The notes beneath the pieces are model-generated. The model was given only the letters and a program-made list of their open reading frames with translations. It had not been told where the DNA came from and did not search any database. From an uncultured Planctomycetaceae bacterium (lineage in GTDB: Bacteria > Planctomycetota > Planctomycetia > Planctomycetales > Planctomycetaceae), in contig CAWFAK010000010.1 of NCBI GenBank assembly GCA_963813715.1, positions 36,730 to 100,729 of the forward strand: DNA of 64,000 bases, read 5' to 3'. The position numbers were made by a program, and so were the translations under genes. Below are positions 1-62,767 of the stretch, piece after piece. Position 1 is the stretch's first letter, and each line of letters opens with the position of its first letter.

Positions 1-1000
1 GGACAGGAGCGGCCGTGCCGTGATCGGTCCCCTCCGAGGCGTTTTCGTCAGCCCGTCGGCCGAATTCGCTGAACGTCATCACCACCACGCGATCGTCCAG
101 CTTCGCCTGCTTCAGTTCGTTCAGGAAGAAGCGGAGCCCGTCCGACAGTTCGCGCAAGAGTCGCTCGTGCGTCTCCCGCTGATAGACGTGCGTGTCGTAA
201 CCCGTCTGCACGGCGTAGTAGACCCTCGCTCCGAAATCGCTCTGGATCAAGCGCGAGATCGAGCGCCAAACGCTTGGGCAGTTCGCCGTAAGGCAAAGTG
301 GCGGAGTCGGGCCGCGGCTTGGCGGCCTGTTGCAGCCGGTCGGCCGTGGCGACGGCGTCGACCTCGCTTCGCCGCACGAAAGCCAGGAGCGATTCCTCCG
401 CTGCGCCGGAGACTGCCGGTTTCGATTTGTCGGCGAGCACCATGTCATCGAGATTCGACAGGGTGGCTGCGATGGATTTGCGTCCGCGAAGCGTGACGGG
501 GAGCGCTTCCGGCCCAACGAGCACCGAAGAGGGGCCCGCCGGCCTTGGGTGCGCGGCCTTCGTCGAGGGCCCTACCGATCCAACCGATACCGTTATGCTC
601 GGTCGGGTCGAAGCGGGCCGTCTCCCAGATCGAACGGCTCACGTCGTGCGACTTGTTCGGATTCGGGTAGCCAACACCCTGCACGATCGCCAGCCGCCCC
701 TCGTGAAACAGGTCTTGGGCGTCACGCATCACGGGATTGAGTCCCACCGCGTCGTTCAGCCGACGGACGCGACTCTTCTCGACCGCCAGCTTGGGACGCA
801 GCCGCTTGTAATTGTCGTCGGCGTAGGGGACGACGGTGTTCAGACCGTCGTTGCCGCCGTCGAGTTGGATCACCACGAGGATCCGATCGTCGAGTGACGG
901 TGCCCGCCGCGCGGGCCGTCTGCGCCAGGAAGGCAGGCACCGTCGGAGCCAACGAGATCAACGTGGCCTCTTTGACAAAATCGCGCCGAGTGAGCCGCAT
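1..1000 (-). CDS. DUF1501 domain-containing protein with Tat signal (frameshifted; runs off window start)
   Basis: Stitched ORFs 722-1018, 445-876 and 48-524. N-terminus MRLTRRDFVK...AQTARA (twin-arginine). Motifs VIQLDGGNDGLNTVVPY and QGVGYPNPNKSH are typical of DUF1501. ATG at 1000 follows AAGGAG. Confidence 0.85.
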
Positions 1001-1010
1001 AACGCTCTCC

Positions 1011-2415
1011 TTATCCAATTTGGGCTTCGGGGGAGGACAGCAAAATGGCGGCCGCTTGCCGCGCGCTCTCGGCCGTGAGCACCGAGCCGGTGCCGACCGA
1101 CTGCCTGTAGCGATTTCTGCACGGCCGCGGGGGGTTCAATTCCGAGGAGCGAGATGCGACAGGAACCGGATCCCCGGCCCCGCCTCACGTCCGCCTACCG
1201 TTCGTTCGACCAACTCGAGCACGCGGGCCGTCGCGGCGGGATAGCGGACCGCGCCATTCAGCAAGCGCCGCGGCGAAGTTGATCCTCGCGACGAGAGCCC
1301 GCGAGTTGAGCCAGCTCCGCCCGCCCGGCCAGCCGAACACGTTCGGCGGATAGAATAGGTCCTGTCCCATCCGCGCGATCCACTCGGCCAGAAAGCAGCG
1401 TGCTGGGGGGCGGCTCGAATTGTTCGAGCGCCCGCACTGCGCCGATCGTGAACTCGGGCGGAGTGACGATCCGCGAGCGAAGATTTGCCGCGGAGAAAAA
1501 TACCTGCGACCGCAGAATCCGCTCAACGCCCCAGCCAATGTCGAGTTGATGCTCGCGCAGGCCTTTTGCCAGATCCTGCACGAGCTCCGTCGTGAGCAGT
1601 CCCTCACCCAAAAATGTTTCGCAGAGCCGTTTCGCCAGCCGCACCGAAGTCGTCGGCTGCTCCAGCAGGAGCGCGACGAACTGGTCGCCGTTAAAGCGGG
1701 CTTTGCGGCCCAGGATCGTCTTTTCGCCATCGTCGTGGTGCTGCGAAAAGTCGTGAAACCCGTCCGGCTTGTACGACCAGCCGGTAAGCGCGCGAGCGGC
1801 GTCCTTGACGTCGGCCTCGGAGAAATTGCCGACGCCCATCGTGAAGAGCTCCATTGCTTCGCGGGCCAGGTTTTCGTTCGGATGCTCCTTGCGATTGGCC
1901 GGCGCGTCGAGCCAGTCGAGCGTCGCCGGCTCTTTGATCACGTGACGGAGCAGGTCGCCGAAGGGCGCGCGGGCAAACTGTCGCAAGACTTCGTTCTGCC
2001 GCCGCATGGCCGCCAGGTCGTTGACCTTGAGGTTGCTGGTGGCGAAGTGGTTGTGCCACAAGAGCGTGAGCCGCTCGCCCAAAGCGTCGGGCGAGAAGAG
2101 CATGCGAAATACCCACCAGGCCTTGAGCCGATCTGCCGACGCCGTCGACGCGGCCGCGTCGGCCAGCGCCGCGGAAACCGCCTCGAAGTCTTTCACGATG
2201 CCGTCGATCCGCGACTTGCCCTGCAGGACACGGGTGACGCTGGCCTCCGGCCCGTCGCGCAAGTCGCGCTCGATCTCGGCCCACGTTGCGGCAAACCCCG
2301 CGCGGCGATGCAGGTGCACGACGCGGGCGAGATCCCAGGGCACCCCAGTATCGGAAGCGTACGCGACCCAGGGATCCGGAACGTGATTCGGCTTTATCGC
2401 TGGTGCAGAGAACAT
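1011..2415 (-). CDS. DUF1800 domain-containing protein (frameshifted near C-terminus)
   Basis: HLHRRAGF, ERLTLLWHNHFATS and PNENLAREAMELFTMG, continuing in other frames with GQDLFYPPNVFGWPGGRSWL and ...LLSSPEAQIG*. Canonical upstream partner of DUF1501. Confidence 0.88.
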
Positions 2416-2593
2416 ATTCGTCCGGGCGATTGCTCACGCCGTTCAAAAATTGACTTCGACCCAATATGAACCGTGTGTCCAGGCTCGACTTCCGATCAAT
2501 CGATCGCCTTTCGGTGCGGCTCTGCTACTCGATCGACCCCGCTTCAGTTTGAAGTCCCCCACGTCGATCTCGAACGGGCTGTTCGTTCGCAAC

Positions 2594-5500
2594 TTACCGT
2601 GACGGTTTGACGCGTAAGACCCCCAGTTGTTTGACCTCGCCCGGCCCGGCAGTGACGTCCGTAAAGATCTGTCCGAAGATTGACCTGCTCATCTTTCCGA
2701 ACCCTTCCTGAGGAATTCGCACATCGGCGGAGTACTTCAACCCGGGAATGATGCCGGGAAGCTCGAAGCGGCCATCCTGGTCGGTCAGGACGTGCCGTCC
2801 GTTGAACTCCGTCAGGATCACACCCTGCTCTCGATCATGCGCAGCTTCGCCAGCGGGCGGAGGGTACCGCCTCCCGCGGCGACTGATGACGGCATTTTTG
2901 AGAGGCTGCCCGTCGTCGTCGATGAGCTGCCCGACAATTCTCGCCCCCGGATGAAGGGTGATTTCCAGTTTTTCCGGAGGTTCGCCGGACAGCCGATAAA
3001 CGCCCACGAGGTTCCTCGCCGGATGATAAAACATCAGCGTGCGAGTTTCCGTGGGGAAGTAACCCGCGAGCGTGAAGGTTTCCGCCTCGTGAAACCTCCA
3101 GGCGCCATTGGACCGTGAGGCCCCCACTGGTCCGCTCACCGTAGAAAAGAAGTAATAGCCGCTGAGCGGTTGACTCTCCGGAGTCAAGACGCGGCCGCTC
3201 ACGCTGACTCCGGACCGCAGGGTCAGCTTGACGGACAGCACGTCGGGCTGCGGCTCGAGATCGATGGGCACGGTGAGGTGCGCGTTTGATGTGAAAGTCA
3301 AATACGGAGACTGGCGGAACTCATCCGCGGGTGCCGCTCGCAAACCGTCGACATGGTCGGAAAACACGCCGCAGGGGGTAGTCATCAAAAGGGCCGCCCG
3401 TCACCTGGAAAAGCAGCACTCCCTTGCCGGGCAGCACGGGGATCTCGAACCCGCCTTCGTGGTCCGTTCTGTAGCGACCCCGACTGTACCAATTGATCTG
3501 GAGGTGATCCGGGTTCGTCCACGATGCCAGATACTCCAAGTTGCCCATGACCGGCTTGCCTGTCCGCGAGTCGGTGACCTGGCCACGGACAAGAATTCCC
3601 GCCGTGAGCTGCACGTTGGACGTGAGCGGCTGGGAGCCCGCGGTCGTCGTCACATCAAAATCTCGCTGCAGATGTCGCGTCCCAAGCGGCGGAACGGCGA
3701 TGAGCTTGCTTTTGCCCAGCGGCAGGCCCTCGAGACGGTAGCGCCCCTCAGAGTCAGTCAGCGTTTGCAGGTAGTCGGAGGCCAGACTGGAGGAAGGCCG
3801 CAGACCCGCATGCGGGTCCGTCGCAGTGTAACCGGTCTTCACGACGCAATCGGCGAGCGGCCGCCCCGTTTTGCGGTCGGTGATGCGACCTTCGACTGGA
3901 ATCGAGGGCCCCAGCAGGCCCGTGAACTCGTTCGGATAGAAAGACTCGGATTGAAGACTGGCGGCAGACGGCCGGTCGAACGCCAGCTTGATCGGCTCCC
4001 CTCGGCGAGACAGGACGTGCAGCAGCCGCATTTCCACGTTCGGTGCGCTCACGAGAATGTCGGCGATTCGCTCGCGGCCAATCCCCCTGAGCGTGAACCG
4101 GCCGTCCGCGCCGGTCCGGACCACGGGCACAATGGCAGAGTTTGCGGTGTCTATTCGGCGTAGGCTCCGGCCAGCCGTATTCTGGTCGGCGCCGCGCTGC
4201 TTCGTGGCTGCGACCCAGGCATCCAGAGTGCCGTCCGTTCCGCTGTGAACGGAGAGCGTCCGCACGATTGCGTCGGCAATCGGTTGACCTTCGATGTTCA
4301 CCAGGCGACCACGAACCGGCACATCATCGGGGACCAGTTTGAGGACCGCCGGTTTAGCGGCAGTCTGCGTCTTGAGCCGACGCCGCTGCTCCTCGGTCAA
4401 TTCAGCCATCAGTCGGCCGCTCGTCTCGAATTGGCCCGAGGAGTCGAATGCGAAGCCAAGGCCGTCCTTCGTGGCGACGATCGTCGCATAGCGCCAGGCC
4501 GGAATCCCGCTCGGAACGGCGTCGGCGAACTCGCTTTTGCGGCGCGTGAACTGGAACTGTCCGTGTGCGTCCGTTACGGCCAACGTCGCCGCTTGACGCT
4601 CCGGAGGACCCTCTCGCCAGTATTGCAACATCAGCTGCGCACCGGCGACCGGCAGTCCGACGTCATCGAGGACTTTTCCCTCATAGGAAAACGCGACATC
4701 AGCCACGACCGGCGTCTTAGGCGCGGAGGTCGGGGCTTGCGCGTCGGAAGAACTGACAGCGTCGCTTCCGTCCCGCTTGATCTTGATCTCGCCCAGATCG
4801 ATCGTCTTTCCCGGTGCGAAAGAGACTTTCTCGGCGACGGTCACGAAGTCGAGTTTGGGATCCAAGGCGCGAATCTTGTAGCTGTCGCAGCCCGCCGCCA
4901 GGTTTTCAATCGCGAAGTGTCCGTCGGCATCGGTCATGGGACCGGAGGTATACAGACTGAACCATGCGTGGCCGTACCGCATAGCCTCGGCGAACACCTG
5001 CACGTTCTTGAGAGGGCTTCCTTCCTCGTCCAGGAGACGACCGCGCACGGTCGCGCAGGGCTCGAGTTTGACTGTCAATGTCTGCGAGGCTTTCTCGTCG
5101 TACTCGAAGGTGAAGACCTTGGCGATTTTTCGTTGCCATTGGGTGATCTGGTAGGTCCGTGATTCCTTCGGAGCCAGGCCCGCGAGCTCAAAGGTGGCAT
5201 CGCGTCGCCCCCAGGTCACGGCAAGCGCGAGTTCCAACTGGAGAAGGTAGCCATCCTCCACCGGCTTGCCTGCACCATCGACAAACGCGATCCGTAACTT
5301 TCCGCCTGGATCGAGCGCCAGGTCGCACGCCGCCGACTCGGTCCCCGGCGTCGGATTGATCTCCTTGAGCGCGTTCTCGAAGGATCCGAAGGCAGGTCCC
5401 AGCGTTTTTGGGAAACGGCCATTTTTCTCCATCCCGGGAATCTCCGAGGCTCCCACGCCCGTGAGATACAGCCCGCCCGCTGCTCTCACGCCCACGATGG

Positions 5501-7071
5501 CGCGCCAGGGCAATCCCACGATGCGATAGGTTCCGTCCGGCGACGTGACCCGATGGGACGCGTCCTTGACGCGCTCGATGGTCCGCCACTCTTCCACATT
5601 CACGAACGGATTCGACCCATACGGGAAATAATGGACGACCGCACTAACGGGTTTGCCGGTCACCTTGTCGGTCACGCGGCCGGTGATCCACAGCCCGCGC
5701 CTGAGTTTGATGTCTAGCGTGATCGGATCAAGCCCCGCAGTCTGCGGGATATCGACTTCTTTTCCAAAATACGGCTGGTCGAGGTTTGGCGCCACCACGA
5801 GCCGGTCGTGTTTCCAATCCTGATCGACGGGCGAGGTTTCTTTGGGCATGCCGATCAGTCGGAACTTCCCTTCCGCGTCAGTCTGGCGCAGATGAATTTA
5901 TGCTGGCTCAATTCGACACGGACCCCTGGGAGCGGCTTCCCGCTGGCCGCATCGCGGACGGTGCCGATAATCGGCTTGGTGAGAGCAGCCTGATATGTAA
6001 AGTCTCCGCCAAAAATCGGCGTCGGCCGGTTATCACCGTCGATCGCACGGTCCGCTGCACTGGGTGTGATCTGTCGAGTCACCACTTCGATTCTCGCCGT
6101 GGCAATCGTCTCTCCGCTGATTTGCAGGTCCACCACTCGTTCGGGCCCGACTCCCCGTACGACAAAGCGGCCATCCCGGTCGCTCACAATGTCTATGGAC
6201 GTAGCTTCCTCGTAACCCGGGAGTTGTGATCCGAGACGGGCGTTACTGTCCCCTTTCTTCATCGCGTCCACCCAGGCGCAACATCCTGACCTTCTCGCGG
6301 CACGCCTTGCGCCACCACGCGCACATGAACTCGGCTCAATGGCCTCCCTTCCAGGTCGACCACGCGGCCGTGAATGAGCGATTCGGGGATGAGCCGCAGC
6401 ACAACCGGCGAATTCGTTTCCTTCCCGGGAACAAAGGCGGGTGCGCGCGCCCACTCGACGCCAAAGCCGTCCGTCCGCGCAGCGAGCCCAAACAATCCCG
6501 TGCCGATCTCGTCGTACCAATAGGGAGGAATCCAAATCTCGAATTCGCCGTTTGCCGCGGCCTTTGTGGTCGCCAGCGGCTTCCAACTCACCCGATTGGA
6601 CCAATACCGTCGCAGCGCGAGGATCTCGGCCCCCGCAGCCGGCCGCCCATCGGGCAGCAACACAGTGCCGAGAATCTGCTGCGGTCCGTTTTCATTTTTC
6701 GCGGCGTTTGGCGGGGTCCTGTCCGATGCGGCTGAAACTTGCTTCGGCGCCGAAGCGCGCTCAGGCGCGCTCTCCGCCCGCGTGAGTTGTGTTGATGCGG
6801 GACGGCCGGCCTGGGTGTCGGCTGCGACCGGCAACGCTACAGCCGGTGAGATCTCGCCGCCGTCAGTTTTGGAAACGGGCGCGGGAGGAGTCGCCCCTTG
6901 CTGCGCGAAGCCGATGCCCGCGACGGCCGCAAGCGTGACGACGCACGCCCCGAGGATCCAGCGTCTGCCCACCCTGGGCGCGATGCGGGCTCCCGCCAGC
7001 ACGTGCTGCAGCCGACGTTTGAGCGAGTCGCCGCGATCACCGACGATCGGGAATAGTCCGGGCGTGTTCAT
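2594..7071 (-). CDS. Membrane-anchored/secreted protein with two large carboxypeptidase-regulatory-like beta-sandwich modules; protease-less paralogue of the upstream M56 protein (~1,490 aa if indels are errors)
   Basis: Stitched ORFs 6259-7071, 5855-6604, 3321-5849 and 2594-3388. N-terminus DSLKRRLQHVLAGARIAPRVGRRWILGACVVTLAAVAGIGFAQQG. Repeated GRxxDxxGxP / TDxxGRF motifs. Modules start near 6675 and 4686. Confidence 0.75.
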
Positions 7072-7072
7072 C

Positions 7073-10000
7073 TCACTTGGCGTCCTTCGCGGTGCCCGCG
7101 GCCAGTTCCTTGGTTCGTTTTTCCGTACCGCGGCGGTCGGACTTCCCAGCGTCGCCCGTTGCCCGATTGGGGCCCGACGGCGTTTCGACGGACGCCGTTG
7201 TCGCTTTGGCTGCGGCGGGCGGCTTCGTGCGTTTCACCGCCCCGCGATGGACTTTGGGAAACCCGCGATCCATTCGCCCGCGTTCGATCGTGATGGTGCC
7301 CAGATCGATCTGATCTCCCGGAGCGACTGTCAATTTGTCGGCGACTTGAGCGAGAGACGATAGATGTGCGTCCAGAATGAATGGCCCTCCCGCTGGAAGC
7401 TCAAGTCGCAAGTGTCCGTCTGCGTCGGTGATCGCAGTCGGATTCCGGACGAACGAAAAACATTCGATCTTGACGTTCGACAGGGGGGCTCCGTCTTCGG
7501 ACAGAAGCCGGCCCGTCACAACGGCCGGCGGTTCCAGCACGATCGTTCGTTGGGCTTCACCGGGTTGCGGCGTGAAGTCGAGCAGTTTCGTGAGCCCGCT
7601 GGCGCGATGTCGCAGCAGGACCGTCCTTTTGTCGCCCGGATAGGTTCCGTAAAGCGTTGCAGAATCGCTCTCGGTAAACGAGCGCGGCGGTAACATCCGC
7701 GGATCGAGGACCAGCCCGACGGCTTCGACCCCCGAAAGCGGCTTGCCGGACGCGTCCGTGAACTTCAGCACGACGTTCTGCCCCGGCTCAACCGGCAAGT
7801 CGACGTTCACCTCGGCGCAAGCGGGGCAACGTCGATCTCGCGCAGGGAGTGGAACATGCCAGGCTCGATCGGCGACAAGGTCGGCGAATTGATTCTCTTT
7901 CTTTTTGCGTCGACTAGTTCTTTGATCTCAGCCCATCCCAGGTTGAAGCGGTAAGTCCCTTGCGTGCATTGCAGGCCGACCACGCCGCGACCCGGGATGA
8001 CGGGGACCCGAAAGCGGCCGTCCGGGCCGAAAACGCCGGCGCTGGAATTCCTCGAGAAGTCGGGTTGACCGGCGAAATACTTCGCGGCGAACTCGTTCGA
8101 TCGGAACGGCGTGTAAAGAACCGAGCCGGAGACCGGTTTGCCGGTTGACCGATCGTAGGCGCGGCCCACGGCCCAGATCGCGCGCTTCAGCTTGATGTCG
8201 AGCCGAATCGGCTCCAGCGAGACGGAGGCGGGAATCGTCGCCTCGTTAGCAGACAGGTAGGGCAAATCTGGAATCAGGATCCGACACAGGTTGATTCGCC
8301 CAGTGTCGAGCCCTTCGAGGCGAAAGTGCCCCTTGGGGTCGGAGGTCGCCGACACGAACATGTTGCCCCCCACCAGGGTCGAGTCACCCCGCTTCACGCC
8401 ATAGGGACGGATCCCGACGCCCGGAATGGGCTGGCCCGTCTCTTCATCCGTGACGAAGCCTTCGACGAGGACGCTCGGCGACGCGACGTGCTCGAATTGA
8501 GAGCCAAGAGTCTCGTGAAATCTAAATGGGATCGGCTTGATCGGCCTCGTCACCACGCTGGCGACGAATGTGGCCATTCGTGGACCCGAGATTTTCAGAT
8601 AGACGTGTCGATCGCGTCCGATTCCCTGGATCTCGAATCGCCCGTCGGCATTTGTTTTCTGCGCCGGAATCAGCGCCTCCGAGACCGATGCAACCGCCTT
8701 GACACGGAAGACAGCCTCTTCGCGGCCCCCTCTGTTTTCATCGAGCGAACGATTGGGCAAGAACCAATGGATATACACGGGCTTGTCCTTCGCGGAGGCG
8801 ATAAACTGATCGACCCAGGCCGCGGTCGAGTCGTAGACGATGACGACCTCGACACGGACATCGCGCAACGGTCGCCCTTCTAAATCGATGATGTGGCCGC
8901 GAATCGGCTCGTCATCGACCAGGTTCATGACAATCGCGTCGGTCTTTTCCGCCGGAAGGACTGGATGCAACGCGAGGCCATAGCCGGCCAGCGTGGCCCA
9001 CAGATTGACGCTGTCCCGGCGATCCGTCATCGGACCAACATCGACGCTGCCCCGAAATTCACCCTTCGCATCCGCGGACAGCGTCGTCAGCACTGTGAAC
9101 TTTTCTGTAGCCGCCGGGTACGGCTGACCGACGGCCTTAATCACTCGCACGGTCGCGCCGACCGCCGGCTGACCGTTGGGCAACAGCACGCGGCCGCGGA
9201 GTTCACGCGTCGTCATCGCGGAAGGCGCGGGTTTCTTTTCGGTTGCCGCTGATGCCAGATGCACTTCCGGGCGAGGCGCCTGCACGGTTGACGCGTTTGC
9301 GACGCCGGGAGATTTGCTGCGTTTCAGCGATCCCCTCGTGATCCTTCTGATTCGTTGCTGCCGGGCGTCGAGTTCGATCGTGACGTCGCCGAAATCGATT
9401 TGCTCTCCCGCGGCAACCGTCAGGTTTTTCTCAAGTTGTTTGAGGGCGCCCGTGACGACAGACACGTAACGCCCGGCGGGGATCTCGCTGCGGAGACGTC
9501 CTTGGGCGTCGGAGGACGCCGCCCGCAAGCCTTCCGGCAGGTTGTAGGCGGGCGTGCAGGTGAGGCTCCAATTCGCGAGCGGCGTTCCCTCCGGAGTGAG
9601 GAAGTGCGCGGTGATCACGGCCGGAGCCTCGAGAACGATCGTCCGCTCGGTCTCCCCCTCCTTTGGCGTAAAGCGGAACAGCTTTGTGAGACCGCTGGCC
9701 CGGTGCTTGAGCCAGACCGTTCGCGTCTCGCCGGGGAACGTGGCATAGAGCGTCGCCGAGTCACTCTCAACAAAGGACCACCATGGCCGAGCCGAGTAAC
9801 CCTTGCCTGACTGATAACGCACATACCGCAACCCGTACGCTTCCACGCCGGCCAGCGGTTTGCCGGCCGGATCGGCGAACTTGAGAACGACGTTCTGCCC
9901 CGGGTCGGCGGCCAGATCGGCATGAGCCTCTTCGGCATCCGGCGGGACGTTGATTTCCCGCACCACCTGATAAGGCCCATACGGCGCGGACGTTAATCTC

Positions 10001-13000
10001 TCGAAGTCGGCGATCGCCTCCCGGCCAAGCTGGAGCCGGTAGTCCCCCTCGTCGCAGTAGAGAGTCAGCACGCCACGTCCCGGGACGACGAGGAGCCGGA
10101 AACGTCCGTCCGCTTCGACATTTCCGCCCGTGCCTTGAATCACGTGATACTTTCGCGCGACTTCATTGGAGCGAAACGGTGTGTACTGCACCCAACCGGA
10201 GACAGGCTTGCCCGTCACCCGATCGGACGCGCGGCCGACGGCCCAAATGCCGCGCTTGAGCTTGACGTCGCACCGAATCGGCCGAAGCGCCACGGCCGCG
10301 GGAACCTCAAAGCCGGCCCCGGTTTCCATTGGCTTGACGTACCAGGGGTGCAGATAAGGCAAATCGTGCGGTTCGACGCCGCAGACGTTGGGCTGCTGGG
10401 TGTTGAGTCCCTCGAGCAGGTAGTGGCCGCGAGCATCGGTTGTCGCGGAGGCTGACAGGCCGAGCTCGACCCTCCACCTGCCCCTGTCGGACCTGATATA
10501 GGGAAAGACGGTGGCGCCGGCGATCGGCTTGCCGCTCTCTTCGTCGGTGATGAATCCTTCGACGGGCACGCTCGGCGAAACGACGCGAGTAAACTCGGAA
10601 CCGTCAACTTCCCACTGGGGCAGGGGAATCGACTTGATCGGCCGCGTCAGAACGCTGGCGAAAATCGTGGCCGTTCGCGAGGCGGAAATTCTGAGGGCGA
10701 TAAGCCGATCGCGCCCCAGGCCCCGCATCTCGAACCGCCCGTCGGAATCCGTTTTGACCGTCGGAACGAGCGTTTCGGAAACGCGTTGAGGCGAGTCGAC
10801 GTGCAAATACGGTCCGCCCGGTGCGGACCGTCCTGCCGAATCGCCTTCGTCGTCGAGGAATGCGTTGATGGGCCGCGGCAGCTTGGAAATCGCGGCCAGC
10901 CATTGGTCGATCGAGTCGGTCGTCGTGTCGAAATAGCGAATGATTTCGACGCGGGCCTCGCGAACGGGCCGCCCCTCGAGGTCGACAATCCGCCCTCGGA
11001 TCGGCTCCTCTTGGGCCAGCTTCAACACGATCGGCTGCGCGTCGGAGATCGACGGGAGCGGCCGCACCACGAGGCCATAGCCTGGCAACGCGGCCCAGAC
11101 GCTAAGTGGACGACGATCCTTGAAGCCGGCGGCATCGATGTGGCCCTCGAAATCTCCGTTCGAATTCGCAGTGCGTTTCGCCAGCACTCGGAGTTCAACT
11201 TGCCCCGCGAGCACGTCGGCTCGAATCACGCGGACGGTCGCCCCGACGGCCGGCTGACCATTGGGCAACAACACGCGGCCGCGCAGTTGCGCGTCGGTGA
11301 CGTGTCAGTCCGAAGTGATTCTGTCTTCGCGATTTGCCCGGAGCGCGGAAGCGGGTGCCGACGCGATCGGCGGCTTCACTGCCGTCGCCTTTGTGCGTTT
11401 CGGTGGGCCGAACGTGGCTTTGACATCACGCGGACGCTTGCCGGTGCTTTCGAGCGTGATATCGCCGAGTTCGATTTGCTCTCCCGCCGCGACGGTCAGT
11501 TTGGGTAGTCGACAACGACCGGCAAAGAGGCCAATCGAGCCGCCTGCCGGCAGGTCGCGACGAAATCGTCCCTGGGCGTCGCTCATGACGGGGGGAAAGG
11601 CTTCCTCGAAACCCTCGCCGAAATCGCATCGAATTTCGATTCCGGAAAGAGGTTTCCCTTCGGCGCTGACCAGGCGGCCGGTAACGATGGCCGGCGGCTC
11701 CAGGACGAGCGGGCGCGGGCCTCCCCGGCCTGCGGAGAGAATTGCATCAGTTTTGTCAAACCCGTCGCGCGATGGCGGAGCCAGATGACGCGGTTTTCGC
11801 CCGGATAACCTGCATAGAGAGTCGTCGAATCGCCTTCGACAAACGACTGGCCGCGCTTCCGGCGCCGAACGGGGCCCGGCAAACCTCAGTCCGTTTGTCT
11901 CGACCCCGGCCAGCGGCTTGCCGGCGGCATCAGTGAACTTGAGGACGACATTCTCCCCCGGATCGACTGGCAGATCGATGCTGGCTTCGCGCGCCCGGCG
12001 CGAGATCGATCTCGCGCAACGAGTGGTACATTTCTCCAAAGATGAATCGGTAGAGAGGGGAAGCCAGAGCCGCGTTCCGATCGGTCAACGACTTGATTTG
12101 CGCCGGCCGAAGTCCAGGCGGTAGTCGTCCGAGTCGCAGCGCATGTAGATGATGCCGTGTCCGGGATAGACCAGGGCGCGAATATGCCCCTCGGGGTCGG
12201 CTTCTCCGCATTCGAGCAGTTCGTCCCAGAACCTGGGGATGTTTCGCAGCCACCTCACGGGCGGGTTTGCTCGTTTGAAACGGCGTGTAAAAGATCTTGC
12301 CCGAGACCGGCTTGCCGGTTGTCCGATCGTAGGCTCGACCAGTAGCCCAGATCCCGCGTGTGAGCTTCAGGTCCTTGCGGATCGGATCGAGCGACTTGAC
12401 GGGACCAACCCGCAGCCCCTGCATCAGGGAGAAGTAAGGCTGGCCGGGCACACGAACATTGCAGTTCAGCCCATAGGCCGGATCGATCCCCTCGAAGCGA
12501 TAGTGTCCGCGGGCATCGGTCGTTCTCATCCCGTATAGAGCTAGGATTGATCGCAGGCGCACACCCGGAATCGGTTTGCCGGTCTCCTCGTCCGTGATAT
12601 CTCCCTCGATTGTCACGCCCGGCGATAGGGCACGTTCGAATTGCGAGCCGGAGATCTCCATGGATTGCTTACGGATGGGCTGGATGGGCCGCGTCAGCAG
12701 GAACGCGAACGTCGTTGCCACGCGCGGACCGGAGATTCTGAGAGCGATAAAGTGATCGCGCCCGATACCTTGTATCTCGAAGCGGCCGTCGGCGTTGGAT
12801 TTCGCCTTCGCCAGCAACGACGCGGGTAACCACGCTTTCGACGTGGAAGGGATCAAGGACTTATTTTGGAATTCCGCATCCTTGCTTTGAATCGACGCGA
12901 TCCACGGGTCGATTGCGTCCGCCTTCGTGTCGAAGTATCGACGACTTCGATGTCGACGTCCCGAGCGGGTCGCCCCTCCAGGTCCATCAAGCGACCCCGG

Positions 13001-15406
13001 ATCGGCTCCTCGGCGACAAGATGCAGCACAATTGGCGTCTCTTTGTCGGGCAAATACGCAGCATGGGCCAGTCCATAGTTTGGCAGCGTGGCCCACAAGT
13101 CGACCGCGCATTCTTGCTCCGTGAGCAAGCCGACGTCAACCTTGCCCCCGAATTCACCCCTCACGTCGGTCGAGAACGTCGTCAAGAACGTGATCGTGTC
13201 GGGCGGCAGGACTGAGTACTCGAGGCCGACGCTCTTGCACACTCGCACGCTCGCACCGATCGCGGGTAGCCCGTTTGGCAACAGCACGCGGCCACGGATT
13301 TCGCGGATCGTTGCGGGCTTCTGCGAGTTTTCCTTTGGTCGCTGGGACGTTGCGGAAGCAGGCCGGATGTTGACGCTTGAATTGCGGCGGGCGGCTTTGT
13401 GCGTTTCTCCGGACCGCGATGGATCTTGGGTCGCAAAAGTCCTTTTTGGTCTCGATCGATCGCGATATCCCCCAGTTCGACGCGTTCACTCGCGACAACC
13501 GACAGCTTTTCGGCAAAGAATGCATAGGGGAATGGATTCGCATAGAGTTCAAACGGTCCCCCGGCTGGCAGCTCGCCGCGAAAACGCCCCTCGGCATCGG
13601 TGCTCACAAACGGGAGCCGGTCGGCCGAGTTGGATTCGAACACGCACTCGATCCGCAGGTCCGACAGCGGGGTCCCCTCGGGGGTGACCAGCCGTCCAGT
13701 CACAACGGCCGGCGGTTCAAGGACGACTGTTCTCTCCGTTTCGCCCACTTTGGGCGTGAAATGAAGCAGCTTCGTGAGGCCGCTCGATCGATGCTTGATC
13801 CAGATTGTCCGCGTTTCGTCCGGCGAAGAGGCATACAAGGTTGCCGAGTTACCTTCGATGGACGATCGACTTCGATTCATGCGGCTGTGCGGATCGAGTC
13901 GCAGCCCATACGTCTCCAAACCGGCGAGCGGGCTGCCGCCTGCATCGGTGAACTTGAGGACGACGTTCTGGCCCGGATCGACCGGCAGATCGACGTGAAT
14001 TTCATGCGTGTCCGGAGTGACATTGACTTGCGCACCGCATGGAATGGTTCCGACAAGAGACGTTCGTATGTCGGCCCGCGCATCGATTGCGCCATTTCGG
14101 AGCCCGCCAGCTCCTTAATCTCACTCCGACCGAGGTTGGGCCGATAATTGCCCTCCGAGCACTTCAAGCAGACGACTCCCCGGCCGGGTATGACCGGAAT
14201 CTTGAACCGTCCCTGGTCGTCGACGAACCCAAACGGGTAATTCGCCAAGAAGTCCGTGGGTGCGTTTCGATACCGCTCGTAATTTCGCGCGGCTGGATTC
14301 GATCGGAACGGCGTGTAATAGACCGATCCAGGGACGGGCTTTCCATTCGTCCGGTCGAAAGCCCGACCAATGGCCCATACGCCGCGTCTCAGCTTGATAT
14401 CGTGTCGGATCGGTTTAAGAGACTCGGAAACGGGGATCGATCCATTTTCGACGGGAGGGTAGGGCAAATCGGGGACGACGATCTTGTAATAGTTGGTGGT
14501 GCCCGTTTCGAGCCCTTGCAGGCGATAGTTTCCTTGAGCGTCGCTCGTTCGCGACAACAGGGCTGCGATGTGTGGATCGTTCAACAGGACGCCATTTTCG
14601 CGCTCGACGGCGGTGGGAATGATGCGAGCGCCGGGAACGGGCTTGCCGGTCTCTTCGTCGGCGACAACCCCTTCAACCGCAACACTCGGCGGCGCCACGC
14701 GATCGAATTGCGAGCCGAAAATCTCGTGATATTTGAAAGGAATCGGCCGGAGGGGCCGCGTCAAAATGCCCGCTTCGATCGTCGTGACTCGCGGCCCGCT
14801 GATTGCCAAATCGACGAGTCGATCCCGTCCAACCCCCTTGATCTCGAAGCGCCCTTCGGCATTTGTCTTCACCGCGGGCATCAGGACATCGGAGACGTTT
14901 TCAGCTGACTTGATGCGTAAAATCGGTTCACGTCGATCAGGCTTCGGCTCCTCGCGAGTGAAGTTGAAAAATGTCTGGCCGGGCGTGACTCGACGCGCTG
15001 AAGCGAGCCATTGTTCGACCCAGGGAGTGGTCGTGTCGAAGTACCGCACGATTTCGACGCGAGCATCGCGAACGGGCTGCCCTTGCAAATCGAGGATGCG
15101 TCCGCGAATCGGCTCTTCATCGACGAGGCTGATCTCGATCGGGCCACTCTTTTCCGCCGGGGCAAGGTGATACGGCGTCAGACCATAACCGGGAAGCGTG
15201 GCCCACAGGTTGACCTGGACTCCGGGTTCCTTCATCGAACCGATGTTGACGCTTCCCCGAAACTCTCCCTGTGAATCCGTGGAGAGCGCAGCGAGCACTC
15301 CGAACTCCTCAGCTCCGCCTTCGTAACGGGGATACTCAAATTTGATCGCGCGCACGGTCGCCCCGACGGCTGGCTGGCCATTCGGCAACAGAACCCGGCC
15401 ACGCAC
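7073..15406 (-). repeat. Four diverged intragenic tandem repeats of ~2.0-2.1 kb
   Basis: Each unit opens with (V/I/L)RGRVLLPNG(Q/L)PA(V/I)GA(T/S)VR at ~15406, ~13299, ~11286 and ~9201. Units also share EEPIRGRxxDLxGxP, YTPF(R/Q), PG(Q/E)NVVLKF(T/A)D and SGLTKL-like motifs. Confidence 0.85.
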
Positions 15407-16779
15407 GGCGACGACGCCGGGGGGAAGCGCGGCGCAGGATTCTGCGCGGGAGTCGGTTGTGGCGACGGGATTGCTGGTGGTGAAGCCGTTGGCGTCGCTG
15501 CGGGCGCGGGGGAAATCGGGGGTTTCGTTTCTTGAGCTGTTTCGAGTTGAGGCGCGGGTTCCGGAGACGGAGCCGCGGCGCGTTTGCCTTGCTGGGCGAA
15601 ACCGACGCCGGCAATGGCGGCTAGCGCGAGCAGCGTGGAGGCGAGCAACCAGTGGCGGCCGACTTTGGGGGTGATCCGCACGCCAGAAAGGACGTGTTCC
15701 AGCCGCCGCTTGAGCGACTCGCGGCTGCTGACGGCGGCCAAGGCGTGGGCCGGCGCGCCTTGTGGGACGAGTTGTAGCAACGAGTCGGCGTAGTCGGTCG
15801 CCTCGCCTCCGGTCGACAGCACCCAATCGTCGCAGGCTTGCTCGCGGAGGTAGGCGAGCCGGCGACGGCTGAGCCAGGTCAGCGGTTGCCAGGGCAGGGC
15901 GATGACCACGATTTCAGCCCACAAGGCGGTCCAGTGATCCCGGCGGATCGCGTGCGCCAGCTCGTGACAAAAGACGCTCCGCCAGAGGATCGGCCCCGCA
16001 TCGGTCGCTGAAGTCGGCAGCAACACGACGGGCCGTGCGCTCCAGCACCAGATCATCGGGCAGCGAATGTGCGGCGTGGGCGCAGGGACGGTGCGCCTCG
16101 CAAGCCCAGGCGCTCGCGTCGCCTCGCCAAGAGCGGCGACCAATTGCGGATCGGTCTCCTCGCGGGCAGTCCGCACAATTCGCGTCCCTGCCAGGAGAGA
16201 AATCGCCAGCCGGACCAACAACAGCAACGACGCGATCGACCACGCAGCGGCGAGCGCGGCGGTCACGCGCGAGGTCCAAGTGAACGGCGCGGGCGGCGGT
16301 TCGAGGGCAGTCTCGGTCGTCTCCGCGTCTTGCGGTTGCTCGCGTGCCGTAGGGTCGCTCGTGGCAACTTCCGGTTCGATCGAGCTGGTCGAGCGGCCCG
16401 GCATCGAGTCGAGTTCTGATTGTGCAAACTCATCCGGGGAATCGGCCCGCTCTCGAGGGAGCTGATCGTCCGGATGGTGGACCTCGGCCGCGGGTGCCGG
16501 TAGCTCGGTGCCAGTCACGACAACAGGCGGCGGTTCGGGAGGCGCAGGCAAGAATCCCCATTGCATGCGATGGACGATGACCGTGAGCAAAGGCGAGACG
16601 AAGGCCGCGCCCATCGCGAGCACGAGCAGCAGATGAGCCCGCCCCGCGCGGCGTCGCCACACGCGGGCCGCGAGCAGCCCCACAGCCAGCCACAGCGTCG
16701 ATTGCCAAACCAACAGCCACGCGAAGTCGCTGGTCCCGCCGGACGTCGACGGGAGCGCACCCATCAGTCGGTCAATCAT
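7073..16779 (-). CDS. Giant BlaR1-like M56 family metallopeptidase with four tandem ~690-aa extracytoplasmic modules (~3,200 aa if indels are errors)
   Basis: N-terminal TM helices, HELAH zinc motif (FCHELAHAIRRDHW, ~15952-15966), REQACDDWV and SLKRRL, then a TM helix. Stitched ORFs 15232-16779, 13877-15826, 13182-13919, 12853-13287, 11930-13111, 11305-12039, 7807-11274 and 7073-7810. Confidence 0.82.
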
Positions 16780-18391
16780 CGTTCAACTCCGCTCTTAGTC
16801 TTCGAGTGCACGGCGATATTCTGCGTGAGTTGTGTCGCCGTTTCTGGCACGTTCAATAGGGCAATCCCCTGGAACTGGGATTGCGGCATCGCGCTCGACC
16901 CGCCAATACCGGCAGCAATGACGAGGCTATCCTTGATTGGCCCCTTCATGTCGGCGCGGCCGTATCGGACGCCTTCGTGTTTAAAAAAGGCATCGGCGTC
17001 GACGCGTGCCGGCTCGAAGTCGTCACGCGCCGACATGCGAACAACGACGGCTCCCGGACCAGGCAAAATGCCTAAAGAGAACGTTCCGTCAGTGTTGGTG
17101 GGCGCCTGGCTAAATGGACCAATGCCAAACGCTGTGCTGGACATTCCCTTTTCGATGTGAGTACTAGGATAGAGCGGCCAATACATGACCTCGGCGGACA
17201 CTGGTTTGCTGTTCGACCGGTCGATCACGCGGCCAGAGAGCGGAATCGCCCGATAGACGTGCAGTTGCACTTCAAGAGGCCCCAACCCCGGCGTATCGAG
17301 GGCCGTCAGCGATCCGTCGATGTAGGACGATTGATTGGGTAAGCTCGCGCCGAGCTGGTACTTGTCTTCTTTGGCGCAGCCCCGCAATTCGAAGCGGCCC
17401 GACACGTCGGTGGTTGTCTCCGAGAATCCGTCGAAATGGTTGACACGCACTCCCTCAATCGGCCGCCCGGTCTTGGCATCGGTCACGGTGCCGACAACGG
17501 GACGCGACGGACGCACATAGTGCGTAAACCGTGCGCCGTAGGTGGCCTTCGTGAAGCGGGGCGGCGTGCCGTTAAGCATCCCATCGAATGGATCAGTCAA
17601 TACGTGGATCGTGGTGTCCGCGATCGCGTCGCCGGAAATCACAAGTACGGCGCGGCGGTGCCGCCCGATGCCGCTGAACCGGAAGCCTCCCCGCTCGTTG
17701 GTCAATGCAGCCGGCGCTTCGCGGCGTAGGGTGACCCTGCTCCCGAACATGAGCCATGAGGTGAATCGGTAGTTCGAGGCGCGCATGTCGTTTGTTTTCA
17801 GCACCCTGAGATACGGTTGCGGATCGTCGTTGGCAAACGTCTCAATGGCGACGATCCGGACGGCGGCCCCCACAACCGGGCGTCCTTCCAAGTTCACAAT
17901 GCGGCCTTCGATGGGCAGATCATCGGTGGCAAGCGTTAGTCTGAGTTCCGTGGACAGCTTCAACGTCTCCGGGTCGATCCAGGCCGGACCGAATCCCGAC
18001 TTTACGGCTTTGATCCGCAGCGAAGCTGCACCAAATCGGGCGTCAGAGCCGGGACCGAAAAATCAAAGTCGCCATCGCTGACGGTTGTTGCCTTCAAATC
18101 GATGAGATAGCCGGGACCCGATCGTATGAAAAACACTTGTGCGCCCGGGGCCGGCTTGCCATCAGGCTGCACAACTCGACCAGAAAACCGGCGGGTTTCG
18201 TCAGCTTCTCCGGAACGATCCTGTTTGCGTTGAGCAGATTTGTCCGCCGCAGAGCGTGCCGCGGATTGGTCTCTGGCTGGTCGCTGTTGAGCCGCGGCAG
18301 TATCCCCAAAACTCACCGCCAGCCAGACCGTCAATCGCGAGACAATTGCCCAGGCGAACCAAGCCGGCAGAGCTGACCGAGCTCTATTCAT
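16776..18391 (-). CDS. Secreted single-module carboxypeptidase-regulatory-like protein (frameshifted)
   Basis: ORFs 18002-18391 and 16776-17963. Signal-like N-terminus ending AAAQQ. FSGRVVQPDGKPAPGAQV, DDLPIEGRIVNLEGRPV and ILPGPGAVVV match the module of the M56 protein. Overlaps the blaI stop and the M56 start (ATGA). Confidence 0.75.
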
Positions 18392-18776
18392 GGGAAAGTT
18401 CCTTCCGCCGCTTGTCGATCATCTTCCGCAGCTCGGCCAGGTCGGCGGCACTCAGCTCCTGGTCATCGAGCAGGTGCTGAAACATGGCAATCGGGTCGCC
18501 GCCGCAAACGCGGTCGATGAATTGCCGCAGCGAGCTGCGTCCGGCTTCGGCGCGGGTGACCACCGGGCGGTAGACGTAGGCGCGGCCCTCTTCTCGATGC
18601 GTGAGCCAGCCTGCCTTGTCGAGCTTTTGCATGACGGAGAGCACCGTCGTGTAGGCGAGCTTGCGACGGGCGAGCTTCGTTTTCACCTGGTTGACGCTCG
18701 CCTCGCCGAGCGTCCAGACGATCTCCATCACGGTTTTCTGCAAGTCGCCCAAATCGTCGAGCGAACGACGGGACAT
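18384..18776 (-). CDS. blaI: BlaI/MecI/CopY family transcriptional repressor
   Basis: LGDLQKTVMEIVW...LAYTTVLSVMQKLDKAGWLTHREEGRAYVYRP...LSAADLAELRKMI. ATG at 18776 is preceded by GAAAGGAA. Confidence 0.93.
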   Translation of the reverse strand: MSRRSLDDLGDLQKTVMEIVWTLGEASVNQVKTKLARRKLAYTTVLSVMQKLDKAGWLTHREEGRAYVYRPVVTRAEAGRSSLRQFIDRVCGGDPIAMFQHLLDDQELSAADLAELRKMIDKRRKELSHE

Positions 18777-18828
18777 CCGGTTCCTTTCGGGTGAAACTTC
18801 GCGGGAGGCTGTGAAACTATCGCCACGA

Positions 18829-18872
18829 GTACTACGACAGATAGTAGTACCGCCGGGCCACCACACCGTCAA
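18829..18872 (-). promoter_or_regulatory. sigma70-like promoter overlapped by a palindromic putative BlaI operator
   Basis: Minus strand TTGACG-17 nt-TACTAC (18872-18844). Inverted repeat GTACTAC-N8-GTAGTAC at 18829-18850 covers the -10 element. Confidence 0.72.
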
Positions 18873-19085
18873 CAAAAAAGTGGCCGAAATGTGACGCCGT
18901 AGGGAAACGGGCGATCACTGCTTTAGCCGGCCTTAAGCGACGCGCTGCCCGCGCCAACACAGCGTGTCGGCCAAGCTGGGAAAGGCGTTCCGTCCGAATT
19001 CCCGAGCTCCGTGATGCAAGCGGCGCCGGCGATGATTAACCGCAGCAGGATCGCCGGCAGACGCACGAGTGCGCCGCGCGCGAAG

Positions 19086-19538
19086 TCAGCTCGCCTTCGG
19101 CGCCTGGCCGATGTCGATGGCGACTTCTTGCGTGCCCGTTTCGACTGATTGACGCAAGGGCGTTTTGTCGGGTCGGGCGTATTTGAGGGGCAGTCGGCTG
19201 TTAGGGACGTCCTTGCCCTCGGGCAGATCGTCGTCGTCTTTGCCTTTCCCCGAGGGGGCCTGTGCGGCATCGATCACGATCACGCGGTGTTGGCCGACGG
19301 CCGCCCCCACCGAGCCATTGGTGCAGCGGAGCTGAAAATGTCCTTCCGCGTCGGTCAGGCCCGTCGATTGCGGCAGTTTGCGATCCTCGGGAATGAAGGT
19401 GACCATTGCATCGGCGAGGGGTGCCCCGTCGACTCGCACGGTCCCCTCGACCTGCCCCATTGGGACTTTGCGCGCGCAACCACAGAGCGCGAAGAGGCTC
19501 AGGCCGAGGACAATACGGATCGACAACGAACGCGGCAT
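19086..19538 (-). CDS. Carboxypeptidase-regulatory-like lipoprotein (DUF1559 partner)
   Basis: Lipobox-like FALCGC, GQVEGTVRVDGAPL, TDAEGHFQL, GAAVGQHRV, LPLKYARPDKTPL; typical gene downstream of DUF1559. Confidence 0.8.
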   Translation of the reverse strand: MPRSLSIRIVLGLSLFALCGCARKVPMGQVEGTVRVDGAPLADAMVTFIPEDRKLPQSTGLTDAEGHFQLRCTNGSVGAAVGQHRVIVIDAAQAPSGKGKDDDDLPEGKDVPNSRLPLKYARPDKTPLRQSVETGTQEVAIDIGQAPKAS

Positions 19539-19572
19539 GGCGCGAAGGACTCTTCCTGGGGAACCGGGCCGC

Positions 19573-20574
19573 TCAGAACGAGGTGTCCGTGACAATTTCG
19601 TTGCCCGCGCGCGTGCTCAGCGCGACGAGCACCGTCTGGCTGATGTACTGGTTCACGGTTCGCGCCGAGCCATCCACCATCGCGAACTGGGCGGCGCCCG
19701 GATGCTGGCTGCCGAACGAGCACACCCGCAACGAGTCGTATGTGTTCGTGAAGGTGGCGTTGGTCATGCCTTGGGCGATCGCTTCCTGATAGGTGATGGG
19801 ACACACGTAATTGATCGGAGAGAAGGAGCTTTCCGTGACGTCGCTGACGCCGTACTGGCCGCCAGTGGAGGCCCACCAGCCCCAGGCGCCCATCGGATCG
19901 ATGCTCCAGCCTGGGGCGAAGAACGTATCGTAGTTGGCATCTGTGTGGTTGCGCTCGCCGAAAAAGAGCGTCGTCGAGGTGCCGTCGAGGACGTCGGCAA
20001 AGCCAATTTGCGGATTCTGCGGCGTCGCCGGTCCGGTCTGGAAGAAGATGCCGTCGGCCGTGGTCAGGGTCGGCGGGTACGAACGCGTGCCGCAGTTTCC
20101 GCCGTAGCTCGTAATGGCGTACCAGGTCGTGGTGTTCGACTGGTAGGGATTCTGAGGAATCTTGTCGGAGGGACAAACGTAAGTCGGAATGACCTTGGCG
20201 CTGTTGGAATCCGACGCGTCCGTCGCGGTGCCAATCGTGTTGTTGTCCGGATCGCCGATGAAGTCCCACTGCTGGTAGAGGGAGCCGGCTTCGATATAGG
20301 GGAGCAAATAGACGAACATCGTGTAGCCGCGGAACTTGGGCTTCACCGCGAAATTAAGCCGCATCTGCCCCGGGGGAAAGACCTGGTAAATGTCGCAATA
20401 GTTGTGCGCGGCGATGGCGAGCTGGTGGAGATTGTTGCGGCATTGCGTGCGGCGGGCCGCTTCCCGCGCTTCTTGCACGGCGGGAACCAGGAGGGCGATC
20501 AAGACGGCGATGATGGCGATCACCACGAGCAATTCAATCAGCGTGAAGCCGCGACGAACTCGATCCTGATTCAT
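19573..20574 (-). CDS. DUF1559 prepilin-type N-terminal cleavage/methylation domain protein
   Basis: RRGFTLIELLVVIAIIAVLIALLVPAVQEAREAARRTQCRNNL, DGTSTTLFFGE, and C-terminal H-X9-DG (SQHPGAAQFAMVDGS). Confidence 0.95.
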   Translation of the reverse strand: MNQDRVRRGFTLIELLVVIAIIAVLIALLVPAVQEAREAARRTQCRNNLHQLAIAAHNYCDIYQVFPPGQMRLNFAVKPKFRGYTMFVYLLPYIEAGSLYQQWDFIGDPDNNTIGTATDASDSNSAKVIPTYVCPSDKIPQNPYQSNTTTWYAITSYGGNCGTRSYPPTLTTADGIFFQTGPATPQNPQIGFADVLDGTSTTLFFGERNHTDANYDTFFAPGWSIDPMGAWGWWASTGGQYGVSDVTESSFSPINYVCPITYQEAIAQGMTNATFTNTYDSLRVCSFGSQHPGAAQFAMVDGSARTVNQYISQTVLVALSTRAGNEIVTDTSF

Positions 20575-20890
20575 GAAGGCCCTCTCACCGGTGCATTGAT
20601 TCGCATCTTGAAGTCGCGCACGATACGAACGTGCCATCTTAGTGACAGGATGATAGCAAATCCAGGAATGGACGCGATGTGAGGTAGAGCACAAACTGCT
20701 GAAGTTTTGCCAGTCCGACGAGCCGCCGGTTCAAGGGCCTGTCGAGCCTGTTCGGCGAACTTCAGAAAGTCCGCTTGCAACTGCGCTCCCCTTGTCAAAA
20801 TCATCGGCTTTCAGTCAAAGTCATCGCACGCGCATTCTTGATCGGTAGTCATCAATCAGAGCTCGCCAACCCCGAGAATTGGAACATCCA

Positions 20891-62673: not shown

Positions 62674-62767
62674 CACCCTGTCGATCCGGCACCGATCGGC
62701 CAGACTAACACCGATCAAAAAGCGGCCCAAACCCGCGGTACCCGCGGCCTGTCGCCGAAGGAACACA

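Follow-up and report, generated by a model that had tools for sequence, protein, structure and literature searches.

A BlaI/M56 repressor-protease cassette of a soil planctomycete in which chains of a ~690-residue unit replace the penicillin sensor

The stretch of DNA analysed here, 64,000 nucleotides of an uncultured Planctomycetaceae bacterium (assembly GCA_963813715.1, contig CAWFAK010000010.1, positions 36,730 to 100,729; hereafter the window), contains a BlaI/M56 repressor-plus-membrane-protease switch of the penicillin-sensor type, in which the sensor is replaced by chains of a unit of about 690 residues. The locus is a member of a large, database-annotated cassette family composed of BlaI, M56 proteases carrying transthyretin-like arrays, DUF1800 and DUF1501. 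What is new at this locus is an exported truncated module, a protease-less partner made of the equivalents of BlaR1 helix alpha9 and transmembrane helix 4 (TM4), and a picture of module turnover. An earlier note, made from the letters of the window, had described the region as a four-gene BlaI/BlaR1-like operon containing seven copies of one module, and its claims are taken up below with the results that bear on them.

The four genes (blaI, a gene for an exported protein, the M56 gene and a gene for a protease-less protein) lie head to tail, all on the minus strand. They and the elements around them are located as follows.

18829 to 18850, minus strand: putative BlaI operator, an inverted repeat, from a repeat search and conservation at orthologous loci
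18384 to 18776, minus strand: blaI, winged-helix repressor of the BlaI/MecI/CopY family, 130 amino acids (aa), Pfam PF03965, E 3.3e-31
16776 to 18391, minus strand: exported protein with a truncated module, from the module profile; one frame change between 18044 and 18023
15523 to 16779, minus strand: M56 membrane zinc-protease domain of the large protein, Pfam PF05569, E 6.5e-19, and alignment to BlaR1 8exs
7073 to 15415, minus strand: ectodomain of the M56 protein, four type-A modules M1-M4, from the module profile; stop at 7073-7075
2594 to 7071, minus strand: protease-less anchored protein with modules M5 and M6, from the module profile and hydropathy
2416 to 2593, minus strand: conserved non-coding spacer that separates DUF1800 from the last array gene, from DNA-level alignment
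1014 to 2415, minus strand: DUF1800 gene, Pfam PF08811, E 4.9e-78; one frame change near 1400
1 to 1018, minus strand: DUF1501 gene, from annotation of flanking reading frames; it leaves the window at the left edge and has several frame changes

There is an 8-bp overlap (ATGAATAG) between the blaI stop and the start of the exported gene, and an ATGA overlap between the latter gene and M56; the M56 gene is followed by the protease-less gene at a TGA-G-ATG junction. Gene order and junctions are those that the earlier note had claimed. It had closed the cluster at four genes; these genes and their order are present, but the unit continues downstream into DUF1800 and DUF1501 (2415 to 1). Penicillinase_R was the Pfam match of 18384-18875 (E 3.3e-31), Peptidase_M56 that of 15232-16782 (E 6.5e-19), and nearly all other pieces of the region gave CarboxypepD_reg-type matches. 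No Pfam match to a transpeptidase domain (PF00905) or to a beta-lactamase was found in 15 pieces of the region or in 104 flanking open reading frames (ORFs) of at least 170 aa, which upholds the absence of a penicillin-binding-protein (PBP) sensor and of a beta-lactamase stated before. The NCBIfam model blaR1_generic (NF000326) matched the protease part alone, at positions 103-301 of 585, with 47.6 bits against a cut-off of 400.

The M56 domain comprises four hydrophobic helices, as determined by hydropathy, with the motifs HELAH, REQACDD and SLKRRL, the last membrane helix and GFAQQG. In an alignment to BlaR1 of Staphylococcus aureus (8exs), HELAH falls on H201/E202/H205, the E..D of REQACDD, with the third zinc ligand Glu and the Asp partner of Arg294, on E242/D246, and SLKRRL on residues 289-295, LKRRL occupying 291-295. 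The HELAH, E..D and LKRRL residues are invariant across 6 orthologues. Its sequence shows the M56 protein to be a membrane zinc protease of four helices whose catalytic set is intact. According to the available text of the BlaR1 structural study (PMC9834060), BlaR1 is a domain-swapped dimer, its autocleavage loop (271-289, cut at S283/F284) occupies the active site, the swapped helix alpha9 carries an Arg294 that extends into the site of the partner and pairs there with Asp246, and the protein cleaves itself spontaneously. The M56 core shares 66-70% identity with its relatives, and the outer loop between helices 2 and 3, about 90 residues long and hypervariable, only 16-29%. An AlphaFold2 model of the M56 domain, made from 6 sequences, was too poor (pLDDT 44.7) and was left unused.

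When an intact copy of the module (9235-11304, minus strand) was compared with the whole genome by tblastn, seven copies were found in the window and one each on contigs C2 and C7. A profile of 691 positions, built from 14 intact modules (alignment A1), placed the seven copies as follows.

18199 to 16995, minus strand: module of the exported protein, profile positions 3-424 of 691
15415 to 13365, minus strand: M1, from the module profile
13314 to 11377, minus strand: M2, from the module profile
11298 to 9241, minus strand: M3, intact, from the module profile
9213 to 7178, minus strand: M4, from the module profile
6687 to 4707, minus strand: M5, from the module profile
4679 to 2606, minus strand: M6, from the module profile

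All seven modules are therefore homologues on a common scaffold, as had been proposed: the motifs listed in the earlier note (GRV..P.G.P, PIRGR..D.EGRP, DGRF, G.G..R, Y.PF.SN and PGRG) correspond to invariant or near-invariant columns of A1. Identities among M1-M4 are 45-54%, whereas M5, M6 and the exported copy share 24-32% with any other module. Variability by sub-domain is roughly even (44-48%, and 60-63% for sub-domain 5), and no one domain is hypervariable.

An AlphaFold2 model of the intact copy (pLDDT 78.8, pTM 0.68) was all-beta and consisted of six successive sandwiches. The repeated unit is real, but the single large beta-sandwich first suggested is, in this model and in the structure search, replaced by six small ones, so that the module would be a hexad of small transthyretin-like domains, about 690 aa in length. 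The structure search covered model residues 1-99, 245-353 and 560-665; sub-domains matched 3e8v (Z 11.7), the transthyretin-like domain of carboxypeptidase D (1qmu, Z 10.8, rmsd 1.6, 81 aligned), 5aq0 (Z 10.6), the SusC N-terminal extension (9hfj, Z 9.9) and transthyretin (Z about 9), and CnaB2 and the teneurin TTR domain were also among the matches. Both PF13620 and PF13715 match the modules, which belong by Pfam and by structure matches to the CarboxypepD_reg/transthyretin-like class of beta-sandwiches. With the whole module as query, the best Foldseek matches were pilins, the TIE protein, an S-layer protein and macroglobulin-type chains; the TM score was only 0.08-0.15, so that the likeness lies at the level of single domains, and no ranked solved structure had the six-domain arrangement.

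Besides the array of the M56 protein, the module occurs in two further formats. The product of the second gene had been described as a secreted one-module protein; the module is there, but truncated, with about four of the six sub-domains. Its N-terminal hydrophobic stretch scored under the membrane-helix threshold, which favours a cleavable signal peptide. The protease-less protein consists of an N-terminal MNTPGLFP..SLKRRL helix, one membrane helix (residues 38-56), GFAQQG, and then M5 and M6. It starts about 16 residues before SLKRRL, within the equivalent of the autocleavage loop, and the arginine of the helix is invariant. Since it begins inside the loop equivalent and retains the alpha9 helix, the last membrane helix and GFAQQG, it resembles a ready-made C-terminal fragment of the sensor. 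The same N-terminus recurs in a related locus (L016:5626-) and in the homologues P0034 and P0144.

The repressor scores under the NCBIfam cut-offs for CopY, BlaI and MecI, and is 98%, 90% and 89% identical to its orthologues in L017, L018 and L019, respectively. A perfect 7+7 inverted repeat, GTACTAC-N8-GTAGTAC, is located at 18829-18850, 53 nt upstream of the blaI ATG. It is the sole match in the window at up to two mismatches, with 0.01 expected by chance. A looser pattern, TAC.AC-N4-12-GT.GTA, has four sites in the whole genome, and the 8-nt spacing is found only at 18829-18850. The repeat is present at the equivalent position in L017, L018, L019 and L020, where the flanks diverge, and one- or two-base variants of it occur in L021 and L022. 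In more distant loci (L025, L026, L074) a related ATACTATG..CATAGTA repeat lies between -35 and -10. A -35-like TTGACG is present at 18867-18872, with a T-run upstream of it. In sequence and position, the repeat would fit a BlaI operator. Because it is unique in the window and conserved at orthologous loci, the self-regulation claimed in the earlier note is plausible, with the binding of BlaI itself as the conjectural part.

The genome as a whole has 20 BlaI matches, 18 of them with an M56 match just downstream, in agreement with the expanded M56 family that had been anticipated. Only three of these M56 genes carry the ~690-aa module; the other M56 ectodomains are many and unexplored. Downstream of the paralogous array on contig C7, a short M56 match (C7:34627-34896, profile positions 143-232) was noted, and a full M56 gene lies upstream of that array.

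After the last array gene, DUF1800 and then DUF1501 are found in the window and in L011, L016, L013 and L014, with identities of 59-87%; the DUF1800 of the window is 84% identical to the gene at the equivalent place in L011. By coordinates, the arrangement is also present in genome G005 and at G008:C13. A single DUF1800 gene is present in each of three genomes (G000, the genome of the window, G003 and G005), and every one immediately follows an array; of the three copies in G009, two adjoin arrays. The DUF1501 orthologue in L011 has a twin-arginine signal. No DUF1800/DUF1501 pair was found downstream at L015 and L022, or at the paralogous arrays on contigs C7 and C2. The four-gene cluster is not closed in itself: the DUF1800/DUF1501 pair is its conserved downstream partner. 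The spacer of about 180 nt (2416-2593) is well conserved in DNA across G000, G009 and G003, and a five-locus alignment of it has a mean column identity of 64%; at G009:C168 the last array gene and DUF1800 abut. A structured RNA in this spacer was unsupported: it had no Rfam match, its folding z-score was -0.74, and no compensatory pair was seen among 46 predicted pairs in 3 sequences.

Of 1.84 billion cluster representatives, 7,196 matched the module profile at E<=1e-30; most of the 150 best matches were proteins of 1.4-4.8 thousand residues with 2 to 8 full-length copies. Among 69 long homologues, 61 carry PF05569, and their database names include 'beta-lactamase regulating signal transducer', 'M56 family metallopeptidase' and 'Regulatory protein BlaR1 [Posidoniimonas corsicana]', the homologue of P. 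corsicana (P0023) being 2901 aa long; another homologue, P0064, is from Paludisphaera borealis. Three proteins of 1,400-1,700 aa (P0062, P0063, P0067) have modules fused to an N-terminal ECF sigma factor with sigma-70 regions 2 and 4, as identified by Pfam, and similar ECF-like N-termini were recognised by eye in P0104, P0105, P0166 and P0180. In such proteins sigma factor and sensor form one chain, with the ectodomain unchanged in kind. Being fused to M56 proteases and to ECF sigma factors, the module forms the outer part of two unrelated transmembrane signalling heads. In the precomputed Pfam list, P0069 (2660 aa) combines modules with thioredoxin/AhpC-type domains. The module is present in 15 of 41 related genomes, including 10 of 11 of the same genus, and in at least 5 of 301 genomes of a phylum sample at E<=1e-30, with 3 candidates scored per genome.

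Related loci were collected with BlaI as the query; a single module as the query found no relative in the genome-contig search. The order blaI, then M56 with modules, recurs with intact frames in L011, L012/L013, L014, L015 and L016, so that comparable gene order in other genomes, the lack of which had been named as a refutation, is found. The blaI gene is directly upstream of M56 in L011, L012 and L016, and one gene upstream of it at the window locus. In the sister genome L017, BlaI is 98%, M56 88% and the first module 82-85% identical to those of the window. An orthologue of the exported gene (82-83%) occurs at the equivalent place in L017 only, and none lies between blaI and M56 in L011, L012 and L016. 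L016 likewise has a protease-less gene after its M56 gene. The region was also compared with contigs from four other runs, of soil or rhizosphere (X1-X4). One contig of X4 joins the end of blaI to the start of M56 (16782-18397), skipping 1614 nt and with two letters between; a close relative that has no exported-module gene therefore exists, as in G009 and G003. In L017 (15370-16125), the C-terminal part of DUF1501 comes no more than about 240 nt after the first module, and modules 2-6, the DUF1800 gene and the beginning of DUF1501 are absent, by deletion or by a collapsed assembly. Upstream of the operon and on the same strand, at 19089-20730, are a DUF1559/N-methyl (type II pseudopilin-like) gene and a small lipoprotein gene; this pair adjoins the operon only in L017, at 97-98%.

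A tree of the modules (27 rows) contained three well-supported types. Type A (100/100) unites M1-M4 with the first modules of G009 and G003. M6 clusters (100/100) with the terminal modules of L011, to which it is 88% identical, and of L013 (86%), and M5 pairs with a G003 module at 73%. Cross-species type-A pairs share 47-52% identity; between the same genomes BlaI, M6 and DUF1800 share 84-90%. The order of type-A modules is not collinear (in L011 the first module pairs with M3 and the second with M2), and the number of modules per M56 protein ranges from one (L017) to five (L014). The flanks of the array are conserved and its centre turns over fast. The fast change of the proximal modules fits diversifying pressure, without proving it.

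We read the locus as a regulated-proteolysis cassette of the BlaI/BlaR type, with a probability of about 0.7. A BlaI dimer bound to the repeat at 18829-18850 would repress the operon, as suggested by knowledge of the family and by conservation of the site. The C-terminal ectodomain, four six-domain modules in the predicted fold, would be exported across the cytoplasmic membrane, by the topology of BlaR1. On the analogy of BlaR1, a periplasmic or envelope cue would act on the arrays, and perhaps also on the outer loop of 90 residues that joins helices 2 and 3. It would be relayed through the last membrane helix and the LKRRL helix, the protease site would be freed, BlaI would be cut and the operon would be turned on. 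Induction would yield more sensor, the exported truncated module, the protease-less two-module protein and most likely the DUF1800 and DUF1501 proteins, probably exported by the twin-arginine (Tat) route. Co-regulation, suggested by synteny, would make DUF1800 and DUF1501 the real output of the cassette. The protease-less protein probably joins the protease as an extra sensor subunit, which is a speculative step. Of the self-regulated surface-sensing system put forward in the earlier note, the BlaI/M56 pair of a non-beta-lactam kind stands, but surface location, ligand binding and a polymeric ligand are conjecture.

Several observations weigh against this reading. The BlaI of the window has H-L where the MecI/BlaI cleavage site N101/F102 aligns, and a Phe lies three residues upstream of this pair; the P1' Phe of the site is described as almost invariant in the available text of PMC9834060. 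A consensus scan for a sigma-70-like promoter found none upstream of blaI, its two matches in the window being intragenic and not above chance, and promoter and terminator counts were no higher than in shuffles. DUF1800 may have its own promoter, since the 180-nt spacer is conserved in three of five loci. Expression has left only a hint: RNA libraries make up six of the 20 runs in which part of the stretch occurs, the contigs of one metatranscriptome cover 26 of 30 bins, and a metatranscriptome contig of 1187 nt, differing from the window at 5 letters, spans the junction between the exported-protein and M56 genes, but contigs of RNA libraries can hold DNA. The members of the cassette are known from sequences alone. 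M2 has six frame changes in 1.25 kb (11716-12940), about five times the background rate. Finally, an in-frame TGA is present at 11305-11307, in the linker between M2 and M3, and if it is real the M56 protein ends after M2.

These last two points bear on whether the cluster is a decaying pseudogene, with real frame changes, a real stop and production of the array lost. From blaI to the last stop the coding frame has 14 frame changes (about 0.86 per kb) and the one in-frame TGA, in 16.2 kb. Those of the M56-protein array are near 15300, 14050, 13340, 12940, 12215, 12097, 11985, 11865, 11716 and 7822, and those of the protease-less gene near 6290, 5895 and 3373. In addition, the M2 bins (11312-13539) are almost uncovered by contigs of X1-X4, whose cover falls sharply at about 11312, just upstream of the TGA. 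However, the same genome has rpoB split into 4 pieces and rpoC spread over at least 3 frames, at about 0.8 changes per kb. The genome is 82.6% complete in 18 contigs, consistent with indels in marker genes too. Elsewhere in the window DUF1800, lptF/G and glgC are also split (1188-2433, 58535-59563 and 62282-63999). When the frame changes are allowed for, none of the seven modules contains a stop, and the family motifs are kept in every piece. Among the indels listed for the X1-X4 contigs, a one-base deletion at 3373, inside the last frame-change zone and beside a run of five G, is found in 3 of 3 covering runs, a compensating pair at 16079/16109 inside the M56 domain in 4 of 4, and an insertion at 7814, beside the frame change at 7822, in one run. 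Contig joints at 4847/8632, 6824/10506, 11580/15033 and 15118/13542 were out of module register or had unknown letters between, and were not used. Orthologues from short-read assemblies have unbroken frames (2559 aa in L011, 1731 and 1462 aa in L016, 4110 aa in L014). Because rpoB and rpoC are broken at an equal rate, the frame breaks are assembly indels; decay is very improbable, and frame-broken genes in this assembly are not to be read as pseudogenes.

Alternatively, the arrays might be structural or adhesive proteins of the envelope, a periplasmic scaffold or surface fibre of beta-sandwich beads, with M56 mainly as an anchor or as a maturation protease that sets them free, BlaI as dosage feedback and no external ligand to be sensed. 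The bead-like chains found by Foldseek point this way, as do the exported and anchor-only paralogues made from the same operon, a module number that varies freely in relatives from 1 to 5, and the spontaneous self-cleavage of BlaR1 reported in the available part of PMC9834060. Yet the Foldseek likeness concerns single domains (TM 0.08-0.15), the modules are also carried by ECF sigma factors, which points to signalling, 96% of M56 proteins are paired with BlaI in the available text of a recent survey (Kurtz et al. 2026, PMC13492132), and the catalytic and swapped-helix residues are invariant. We consider this explanation unlikely, though one to be taken seriously. The names given to homologues in databases would agree with a true beta-lactam-sensing BlaR1/BlaI pair whose sensor or beta-lactamase had been overlooked. 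Against it are the lack of any PF00905 or beta-lactamase match in the region and the 104 flanking ORFs, and the confinement of the blaR1_generic match to the protease part, far under its cut-off; such a system is scarcely credible here.

A bolder form of the BlaI/BlaR-type reading, which we regard as doubtful, is that protease-less proteins are stand-alone sensor subunits that imitate the autocleaved C-terminal fragment of a BlaR-type receptor, dock on the M56 protease by the alpha9 helix swap known from the BlaR1 dimer and lend their invariant arginine to the active site of the partner. With the soluble exported module they would form a combinatorial receptor, of fast-changing proximal modules and one conserved terminal module, that governs DUF1800/DUF1501. 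If true, it would be the first regulatory handle on this pair.

The closest known systems are BlaR1/BlaI and MecR1/MecI of Staphylococcus aureus and Bacillus licheniformis (8EXP-8EXT; PMC9834060, available text). As in these, the repressor gene lies upstream of the sensor-protease gene, the protease has four membrane helices, HExxH, equivalents of Glu242/Asp246 and an LKRRL helix with an Arg294 equivalent, and a palindromic operator, here putative, precedes the repressor gene. In contrast, the present locus has no penicillin-binding sensor, beta-lactamase or PBP2a, its ectodomain consists of about 2,800 aa of tandem beta-sandwich modules rather than about 250 aa, H-L takes the place of N-F at the aligned BlaI cleavage site, and it has extra genes (exported module, protease-less partner, DUF1800/DUF1501). 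With a BlaI gene within five genes of an M56 gene, it falls within the wide BlaIR family. In the available text of the M56 survey (PMC13492132), a transpeptidase domain is present in only about 6% of some 15,000 M56 proteins, 96% of which are within five genes of BlaI, and a CarbopepD_reg_2 C-terminus is among nine M56 architectures with at least 100 entries. That text lists the architecture M56 then CarbopepD_reg_2 (PF13715) by domain names only; the six-domain unit, the arrays, the protease-less partner and the link to DUF1800/DUF1501 are not described in it. It also describes CenIR of Clostridioides difficile, likewise an M56 protease and BlaI without a transpeptidase domain, in which, unlike here, CenR has a short disordered tail. 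In PetR/PetP of Synechocystis (PMC7896320, available text), a BlaI-like repressor of non-antibiotic genes is degraded via a BlaR1-like protease as well; unlike the present protease, PetP has no large ectodomain, and its signal is copper, whereas nothing at this locus points to a metal. In the literature on BlaR1/M56 in planctomycetes, on M56 with carboxypeptidase regulatory-like domains and on DUF1501 with DUF1800, no description of the cassette was found among the papers listed.

BlaIR switches are now regarded as a general route from the envelope to transcription, and, according to the available text of the survey, almost none beyond those for beta-lactams has a known cue or output (PMC13492132). 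The cassette described here is common in soil and marine Planctomycetota, and its ectodomains are by far the largest of the family. It is tied to the only DUF1800/DUF1501 pair of its genome, two very widespread families of unknown function, and it offers a defined regulator, an operator and a candidate output for study in cultured carriers. Its protease-less partner is a natural test of the helix-swap and autocleavage model of BlaR1.

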